A stretch of 64,000 nt of DNA, taken from NCBI RefSeq assembly GCF_003018235.1, contig NZ_CP027437.1; one strand, given 5' to 3'. Each line of letters starts with the position of its first letter. Position 1 is the stretch's first letter. A program made the translations under genes and the position numbers. A model generated the notes under the pieces. It was not told the origin of the DNA. It worked only from the letters and a program-made list of their open reading frames with translations, and did no database searches. This DNA is from Escherichia coli (lineage in GTDB: Bacteria; Pseudomonadota; Gammaproteobacteria; Enterobacterales; Enterobacteriaceae). This document shows, one piece after another, positions 52,938 to 54,611 of this stretch.

Positions 52938-54611
52938 ATGAATATAAAGACGATTAACGTCAGCCTTTTGTCTTTTTCTATTATTACAGCATTGTTTCCG
53001 TTGAACGCGTTGGCAACAAAATTAACCATTGAGCAGCGCCTTGAACTGCTTGAAAATGAATTGTCGCAAAATAAACAAGAGCTGAGAGCAACACAGAATG
53101 AACTGGGGGTATATAAATCCCGACTTTCGACCTTACAAAAAAGTATTACGGAAAATAAATACAAATCAGCCTCACTTGCTGAAATATCAGCGACATCTCC
53201 CGTCGCTGATAACATCAAAAATGAAAACGGTGAACAGAACTCGTCTGCCGCAGCGCATACTATAAATGGATCGCAGCAAGTTGCCGTTATTGAAAGTAAA
53301 GGCGACAAAACCACTATCGAAAGCGTGACCCTGAAAGATATCAGTAAATATATAAAGGATGATATTGGGTTCAGCTATCAGGGGTACTTCCGCTCAGGCT
53401 GGGGTACCGGAAATCATGGCTCACCACAAACTTATGCAGCGGGTTCTCTGGGACGTTTTGGTAACGAGATGAGCGGTTGGTTTGACTTAACCTTAAATCA
53501 GCGTGTTTATAATCAGGACGGTAAAACGGCAAATGCGGTCGTTACCTATGATGGCAACGTAGGTGAGCAGTATAACGATGCCTGGTTTGGTGACAGTGCC
53601 AATGAAAATATCATGCAGTTCAGTGATATTTATCTGACAACGCGAGGTTTTTTACCCTTCGCGCCAGAGGCAGACTTCTGGGTAGGCAAACATAAACTCC
53701 CGCAATATGAGATCCAAATGCTGGACTGGAAAACCTTAACCACGGATGTCGCTGCGGGTGTGGGGATTGAAAACTGGGCACTTGGTGTAGGGCTGTTTGA
53801 TATGTCCTTAAGCCGTGATGATGTCGATGTTTACTCTCGTGATTTTACGCGTACCAGTCAGATGAATACCAATTCTGTGGATGTTCGTTATCGCAATATC
53901 CCGTTATGGGATGATGCAACATTATCATTAATGGCTAAATATTCCGCACCAAATAAAACGGATCAACAACAAGATAATGAAAATGACGACAGTTATTTTG
54001 AAATGAAAGATAGCTGGATGCTGACTTCTGTTTTACGGCAAAACCTGCAACGCGATACGTTTAATGAATTTACGTTACAGGTTGCCAATAATTCCTATGC
54101 CAGCAGTTTTGCCAGTTTCTCAGATGCCAGTAACACGATGGCGCATGGTCGCTATTACTATGGTGACCATACCAATGGGATCGCCTGGCGTTTAATCTCT
54201 CAGGGCGAGATGTATCTTACTGACAATATTATTATGGCTAACGCGCTTGTCTATTCTCATGGCGAAGATGTTTATAGTTATGAAAGTGGCGCTCATAGTG
54301 ATTTTGACAGTATTCGCACCGTAGTAAGACCGGCCTGGATCTGGAATACATGGAATCAGACGGGGCTTGAATTAGGCTGGTTTAAGCAACAGAACAAAAC
54401 ACAGCAGGGTGTAACACTAAATGAATCGGCTTATAAAACGACACTCTGGCATGCATTGAAAGTGGGTGAAAGCATTTTAGGTTCACGACCAGAAATTCGC
54501 TTCTATGGAACGTATATCAATATTCTGGATAACGAATTATCGAATTTTAAGTTTAATGAGAACAGCAAAGACGAGTTTATGGCCGGCATCCAGGCGGAAG
54601 TCTGGTGGTAA
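52938..54611 (+). CDS. LamB-superfamily sugar porin with N-terminal coiled-coil extension (ScrY/BglH-like)
   Basis: Signal peptide, about 50-aa coiled coil, beta-barrel alternation, C-terminal ...EVWW. Confidence 0.7.

Follow-up and report, generated by a model that had tools for sequence, protein, structure and literature searches.

A LamB-family porin with a coiled-coil extension, probably BgcH, in a beta-glucoside gene cluster of Escherichia coli

Based on its sequence family, predicted fold and gene neighbourhood, we assign an intact open reading frame for a 557-aa porin, found in a 64,000-nucleotide stretch of DNA (hereafter, the window), to bgcH, the porin gene of the beta-glucoside operon bgc of E. 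coli (bgcR / bgcE-F-I-H-A), whose product would serve as a sugar channel in the outer membrane and is a paralogue of BglH. We put the probability of this assignment at about 90%. Sequence comparison identifies the protein as a BglH paralogue and not as a relative of ScrY, and its ScrY-like coiled-coil extension is real but ordinary for the porin group to which it belongs. The porin gene, its family, the extension domain and the operon have already been described and are routinely annotated. In E. coli, BgcH joins BglH as a second clear case, with the ScrY-type coil appearing general in PTS-linked sugar porins; it could help in the design of experiments on the role of the coil, and its discovery value is small.

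Domain layout and predicted fold of the porin

The porin gene occupies window positions 52938..54611 on the plus strand, exactly as located in the preliminary description, which had been made from the sequence alone. Its ATG is preceded by an AAGGA ribosome-binding site, 6-7 nt upstream. A mis-called or chimeric reading frame was ruled out by 99% identity to a sequence cluster with 14022 members and by collinearity with the orthologues without indels. The domains are laid out as follows.

52938..53015 (+): putative signal peptide, residues 1-26; cleavage after NALA read by eye
53016..53150 (+): periplasmic coiled-coil segment (Sugarporin_N), residues 27-71; from Pfam, a heptad test and the AlphaFold2 helix
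53151..53375 (+): linker, residues 72-146; from pLDDT, conservation and a motif common with BglH
53376..54611 (+): LamB-type 18-strand beta-barrel, residues 147-557 and the stop codon; from Pfam LamB, AlphaFold2 and Foldseek

The signal peptide combines a Lys-containing n-region (K4), a hydrophobic core and an A-x-A type site, features that recur in BglH and the orthologues. Pfam LamB (PF02264) matched residues 147-557 with 276.5 bits (cut-off 25.1; E 8.9e-82) over profile positions 1-378 of 378, and Sugarporin_N (PF11471, Pfam title: 'Maltoporin periplasmic N-terminal extension') matched residues 30-56 with 29.2 bits (cut-off 25.7). The preliminary description had quoted the peptide of residues 27-70; in the best register of this segment, 10 of the 13 heptad a/d positions are hydrophobic, compared to 3 of 31 positions elsewhere, a contrast that was equalled in 3 of 20000 shuffles of the segment.

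Using an alignment of the porin with 41 relatives (22-83% identity), AlphaFold2 produced a model (mean pLDDT 84.6, pTM 0.72) with a single long helix at 31-71 (pLDDT about 80-88), a stretch of mostly low confidence at residues 72-144 (pLDDT mostly <50), and 18 long strands within residues 145-556 (pLDDT >90). The linker is itself divided into a variable, low-confidence part (residues 72-110) and a conserved part (residues 111-146). Foldseek comparison of the model with the PDB returned the maltoporins of Salmonella and E. coli (1mpr, 8xcj and 1mal; TM 0.76-0.78, 22-24% identity) and ScrY (1a0t and 1oh2; TM 0.79, 17-18% identity), and the remaining porins, including 16-strand types, reached TM values of <=0.57. 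A profile built from 42 sequences of the porin family matched LamB (E about 1e-112) and ScrY (E 3e-44) in the PDB, where a single-sequence phmmer search with the porin gave no match even at E <= 1. Taken from profile matches and a predicted structure, the porin is a LamB-family 18-strand sugar porin with a periplasmic N-terminal extension.

These results bear out the preliminary description in its expectation of a LamB-family porin, for which it had named an HMM assignment and a predicted 18-strand LamB-like barrel as checks, and in its comparison of the C-terminal EVWW with maltoporins (porin ...AEVWW, LamB ...MEIWW; also BglH ...AEIWW and ScrY ...METWF). It had further proposed about 50 residues of coiled coil between the signal peptide and the barrel. 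A heptad coil does lie N-terminal to the barrel, but its length is about 41-44 residues, and it is separated from the barrel by the 75-residue linker (72-146), which had gone unmentioned.

The gene cluster and its counterpart among described operons

The window is a segment of E. coli chromosome that carries dgcZ, ydeE, eamA, six extra genes, marB-marA-marR, marC and ydeA. The same six genes are annotated in RefSeq between eamA and marB in strains E118 and FORC_029, and the cluster is absent from K-12 MG1655, in which the eamA-marB gap is 30 bp. The features around the porin gene are given below, with gene names that follow the probable bgc assignment.

49898..50596 (-): GntR/UTRA-family regulator, bgcR, divergent (Pfam GntR and UTRA; RefSeq 'GntR family transcriptional regulator' in strains E118 and FORC_029)
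50597..50794 (no strand): bgcR-operon intergenic control region, with a CRP-like site within
50795..51106 (+): PTS IIB, lactose/cellobiose type, bgcE (Pfam PTS_IIB, RefSeq)
51221..52543 (+): PTS IIC, lactose/cellobiose family, bgcF (Pfam PTS_EIIC; NCBIfam TIGR00410, 339 bits, cut-off 236); RefSeq-equivalent start, the mechanical reading frame beginning at 51182
52571..52882 (+): PTS IIA, lactose/cellobiose type, bgcI (Pfam PTS_IIA, RefSeq)
52886..52913 (+): 11-bp stem-loop between the IIA and porin genes, with no T-run after the stem
54636..55985 (+): 6-phospho-beta-glucosidase, GH1, bgcA (NCBIfam NF007154, 937.6 bits)

The porin therefore lies inside a PTS beta-glucoside cluster, with IIB, IIC, IIA and GH1 genes around it, as the preliminary description had placed it. 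Gene order and families match the description of the bgc operon of septicemic and uropathogenic E. coli (a divergent GntR-type regulator BgcR, IIB, IIC, IIA, a fifth gene that corresponds to the porin, and a phospho-beta-glucosidase), the difference being a 90-bp in-frame deletion in bgcA of the present strain. We take the fifth bgc gene to be the one named bgcH, presumably encoding a porin, and we assume the operon to be CRP dependent. A candidate CRP-like site upstream of the operon (TGTGATCAATGTACCA, 50711-50726) has 2 mismatches to TGTGA-N6-TCACA and, with 28 equally good sites in the 64-kb window, is weak evidence for such control. The bgc operon was reportedly described by Neelakanta, Sankar and Schnetz in 2009 (Appl Environ Microbiol 75:2284), and our match to the published locus is a probable one that draws on a secondary description.

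In PMC3585215, bgc is presented as a five-gene operon with a PTS and a phospho-beta-glucosidase, with cellobiose, arbutin and salicin as substrates and BgcR as positive regulator. The same three substrates are given in PMC4488073, which groups bgc with chb, asc and bgl as cryptic E. coli beta-glucoside operons. A six-gene cluster of strain CFT073 (c1955-c1960) is tabulated as 'PTS system, cellobiose specific' (PMC2831201), and the paper on the E. coli W genome mentions the bgc work solely in relation to bgl silencing. A literature search on BgcH and the names of the bgc genes led to a single relevant secondary source, and no channel measurement for BgcH was found in the literature.

Of 5426 complete E. 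coli genomes, 2553 carry the porin gene, named 'carbohydrate porin' in RefSeq, with 95-100% identity. Orthologues of the same length (557 aa; about 75-83% identity) occur in Citrobacter, Salmonella enterica (mostly subsp. salamae), Enterobacter and Kluyvera. On a Citrobacter contig, the same six genes stay together in a different chromosomal neighbourhood, and thus the cluster behaves as a unit. The stem-loop upstream of the porin gene (minimum free energy -20.3 kcal/mol, z = -3.1) retains its stem in Citrobacter, where a G-C pair is replaced by A-T in a compensatory change and the loop is different. Promoter and terminator consensus sites were no commoner than in shuffles over positions 50400-56400.

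Relationship to BglH, ScrY and LamB

To place the porin within its family, it was compared with BglH (YieC, b3720) of the K-12 bgl operon, with LamB of K-12, and with ScrY, the sequence of which was taken from the scrK-Y-A-B-R regulon on an E. coli plasmid, where a ScrY bait sequence matched the regulon porin at 100%. The porin is 53% identical to BglH over 541 columns, that is, over the full length (582 bits), versus 24% for LamB (90 bits) and 23% for ScrY (58 bits). Plasmid matches in E. coli at 22.9% identity, considered as ScrY, turned out to be a shortened 'maltoporin' adjoining blaCTX-M-14. Orthology with ScrY was ruled out by the 23% identity and by the neighbours, which are cellobiose-type PTS and GH1 genes and not scrK/A/B/R. 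Full-length similarity to BglH, together with beta-glucoside PTS and phospho-beta-glucosidase genes as neighbours, places the porin in the BglH/BgcH subfamily. The 'ScrY-like porin' of the preliminary description was thus a misattribution as far as the barrel is concerned.

The likeness to BglH extends to the order of the parts (signal peptide, Sugarporin_N coil, linker and LamB barrel), to the LT(V/I)EQRLELLE motif and the pre-barrel motif TLKD(I/F)SK(Y/F)(I/V)KD(D/E)IGFSY, which are common to both proteins, and to operons that also encode a beta-glucoside PTS and a GH1 phospho-beta-glucosidase. However, the bgl operon is located at another chromosomal site and is built around the BglG antiterminator and a glucose-family EII (BglF), whereas the porin cluster contains a GntR regulator and a three-protein lactose/cellobiose-family PTS, and the linker of the porin is about 20 residues longer. 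According to Andersen, Rak and Benz (1999), as cited in PMC2646131, BglH is a porin specific for aryl-beta-glucoside uptake. ScrY (PDB 1A0S, 1A0T, 1OH2) resembles the porin in its LamB-family 18-strand barrel, its N-terminal periplasmic coiled coil (PF11471) and a gene adjoining those for a PTS permease and a sugar-phosphate hydrolase, but differs in its constriction residues and in having sucrose as substrate and regulon. LamB (PDB 1MAL, 1AF6, 1MPR) has the same fold and family and the ...WW C-terminus, but its partners are an ABC transporter and a binding protein.

Functional residues of LamB were mapped onto the porin through a 44-sequence alignment. Along the greasy slide, four of the six LamB positions are aromatic in the porin, with Y6 corresponding to Y150, Y41 to W181, F227 to F375 and W420 to W556. 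W358 is replaced by the non-aromatic L514, and W74 aligns with D214, although W216 lies two residues off and the loop alignment is uncertain. The polar track is represented by R152 (LamB R8), R173 (R33), D183 (E43) and D263 (D116), so that, among the LamB positions, Y6, Y41, F227 and W420 of the slide and R8, R33 and D116 of the track are kept. At the constriction, R82 corresponds to S229, R109 to Q256, H113 to Q260 and Y118 to K265. BglH is identical to the porin or conservatively substituted at the mapped positions, except for T194 in place of D214 and K237 in place of Q256, and its channel lining departs from that of LamB in the same way (L at W358, K at Y118, Q at H113). The agreement between BglH and the porin at these positions points to a distinct specificity subfamily. 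Because the constriction differs from those of both LamB and ScrY, specificity and substrate range are not readable from that homology.

Combining these comparisons with the operon context, a pathway can be proposed. BgcH would be exported, its signal peptide cleaved, and residues 147-557 would fold into an 18-strand LamB-type barrel that, by analogy with LamB and ScrY, would trimerise in the outer membrane. Cellobiose, arbutin and salicin, when scarce outside, would diffuse in along the aromatic greasy slide, be taken through the inner membrane as sugar phosphates by the lactose/cellobiose-type PTS (IIB, IIC and IIA), and then be hydrolysed by the GH1 enzyme. Residues 27-71 of the three subunits would form a parallel periplasmic coiled coil on a flexible 75-residue tether, and this coil could either help to hold the trimer together or, as proposed for ScrY, serve as a sugar sink of low affinity.

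The coiled-coil extension and the state of the operon

The extension after the signal peptide is about 123 residues long in the porin, about 104 in BglH and about 77 in ScrY. Among 14 non-redundant orthologues, conservation is 0.80-0.88 for residues 31-50, which include LT(V/I)EQRLELLE (resembling STIEARLNALE of ScrY), falls to 0.46-0.79 for residues 71-110, is 0.75-0.95 for residues 111-150, and is mostly >0.9 in the barrel across five genera. Among the best 120 matches listed, 110 proteins from five genera are 557 aa long and align without indels. A 50%-identity representative library contained 269 proteins that matched the porin at E <= 0.001. Seven of the eight full-length relatives with at least 41% identity have 100-170 residues ahead of the first tyrosine of the barrel; P0134 (461 aa), with 51, is the exception. 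P0138, at 35% identity, has 93 such residues, and the remaining relatives, more distant and similar in length to LamB, have 24-57. The Sugarporin_N model matched BglH with 45.6 bits and ScrY with 40.7 bits; in LamB, which has no N-terminal extension, a search with this model gave no match. Since BglH and nearly all of the porin's closest relatives in the library carry the extension, it is not peculiar to ScrY: the preliminary description had recognised an extension of the right kind but wrongly held it to be characteristic of the sucrose porin.

From this resemblance, it had been proposed that a ScrY-like porin with a coiled coil is adapted to the uptake of larger oligosaccharides, such as cellodextrins. 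The domain order is indeed that of ScrY, the extension is the longest among the three characterised-type porins, and in LamB-family channels the binding of maltodextrins improves with chain length, up to about five glucose units (PMC4753733). Against this, the barrel follows BglH in identity rather than ScrY, and the porin is encoded with a lactose/cellobiose-family PTS and a GH1 6-phospho-beta-glucosidase, which act on disaccharides and aryl glucosides. The substrates reported for bgc fall into the same two classes. Nor is the coil a sign of large substrates, given that sucrose, the sugar served by ScrY, is a disaccharide. We consider uptake of larger oligosaccharides highly improbable.

A different role for the coil and tether would be that of a hand-off device in PTS-feeding porins, taking the place of an ABC binding protein and being more than a trimer stabiliser. 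Six of eight long-extension LamB-family porins (BgcH, BglH, ScrY, P0129, P0130 and P0131) lie in PTS operons, compared to none of four extension-less porins (LamB, P0152, P0163 and P0193; neighbours are ABC, MalM, MFS or amylase genes), an association that hints at a hand-off role but comes from a very small sample in which the proteins with an extension are grouped in the clade closest to the porin studied here and are not phylogenetically independent. The indel-free 557-aa length of the listed proteins, despite a variable 71-110 segment, also agrees with this role. In bioRxiv 10.1101/306035, the first 42 mature residues of ScrY are described as a coiled coil, and an earlier proposal that its 70-residue N-terminus acts as a periplasmic sugar sink, or has a binding role, is summarised. 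The same preprint reports that the analogous coil of DcaP stabilises the trimer with no effect on transport, and two extension-bearing porins in our context sample stand alone, both of which speak against a hand-off. On balance, we regard a hand-off function as doubtful, and more doubtful still that the coil and its length-conserved tether evolved specifically in PTS-feeding LamB-family porins as a module replacing the ABC binding protein. If a hand-off does occur, the tether of BgcH, which exceeds those of the other two characterised-type members in length, would make this porin well suited to testing the old ScrY proposal.

Compared to strains E118 and FORC_029, bgcA of the present strain has lost 90 bp in frame after about position 55851, between GGGAAATGAAAAA repeats, which shortens its product from 479 aa to 449 aa (30 residues). 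The deletion removes a strand-helix unit of the (beta/alpha)8 barrel; therefore, we infer that BgcA is very probably inactive, and the beta-glucoside pathway is likely defective in the present strain despite the intact porin gene. Given that bgc is described as cryptic and that BgcA is probably inactive, the porin may rarely work in its pathway here. The deletion represents operon decay in the present genome, and the porin could be part of a decaying remnant, that is, of a cryptic, largely unexpressed cluster in which it has no current function. This would be consistent with the listing of bgc among the cryptic operons (PMC4488073), with the missing strand of BgcA, with an IS1 element inside the porin gene of strain H1, and with shortened or fused porin products (P0002, P0003 and P0011). 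In contrast, the porin reading frame is intact and 99% identical to its 14022-member cluster, and barrel conservation above 90% across five genera indicates purifying selection. We therefore treat a remnant as possible but unlikely. The bgcA deletion junction was found in 5 of 5426 genomes, which argues for a recent strain-level lesion.

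Presence, absence and decay of the bgc locus

The six-gene bgc cluster (window 49898-55985), which lies between eamA and marB, is present or absent as a whole and so forms an insertion/deletion polymorphism. K-12 lacks it (L005, 1620207-1620238), with 30 bp separating eamA from marB, and in the Citrobacter contig (L008) the six genes lie in a different neighbourhood. The porin gene is altered in some E. coli strains: an IS1 element interrupts it, it is truncated, or it forms an in-frame fusion with the GH1 gene that follows it (genomic match H1, NZ_CP032145.1 1736910-1739360; proteins P0002, P0003, P0005, P0011, and P0047). 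These alterations indicate that the bgc locus decays sporadically.

The window itself contains an altered gene 3' of the porin gene:

54636-55985, 6-phospho-beta-glucosidase gene, with a deletion after about 55851

This 90-bp in-frame deletion, flanked by two GGGAAATGAAAAA direct repeats, removes 30 residues from the glucosidase, including an 11-residue stretch. The junction is rare: 5 of the 5426 complete E. coli genomes carry it.

Candidate regulatory elements

Two intergenic elements were considered:

50711-50726, CRP-like site TGTGATCAATGTACCA, with two mismatches, in the bgcR-bgcE intergenic region
52886-52913, 11-bp stem-loop in the gap between the genes for PTS IIA and the porin

Because 28 equally good CRP-like sites occur across the 64-kb window, the one at 50711-50726 is weakly informative. 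The stem-loop has a folding energy of -20.3 kcal/mol (z = -3.1), carries GGAGGAAA within its 3' arm, and is not followed by a T-run. In Citrobacter (L008, about 7945-7975), the stem is kept through a compensatory G-C to A-T substitution, and the loop is different. This structure might affect mRNA stability or act as a partial attenuator.

The porin linker and N-terminal extension

Between the coiled coil and the barrel of the porin lies the linker:

53151-53375, porin residues 72-146

Among the 120 best matches listed, all 110 full-length proteins, from five genera, have 557 residues and no indels. Despite this constant length, conservation is poor across residues 71-110. It is high across residues 111-146, which include a 17-residue motif also present in BglH, the porin of the K-12 bgl operon; this latter segment matched none of the domain models and was modelled structurally with low confidence.

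Genomic neighbourhoods were compared for a sample of 12 LamB-family porins (loci L003, L006, L007, L008, L009, and L011-L016). Six of the eight porins with a long N-terminal extension are encoded in PTS operons; none of the four extension-less porins is accompanied by a PTS, their neighbours being ABC, MalM, MFS or amylase genes.

The neighbourhood of one porin relative (P0130, 45% identity) comprises genes for a BglG-type antiterminator, PTS EIIB and EIIC-IIA, a Sugarporin_N+LamB porin, and a GH106 (alpha-L-rhamnosidase family) enzyme:

L009 3982-11313 (GCA_017569925.1, CP050854.1), P0130 cluster

Such a pairing of a PTS with GH106 is unusual.
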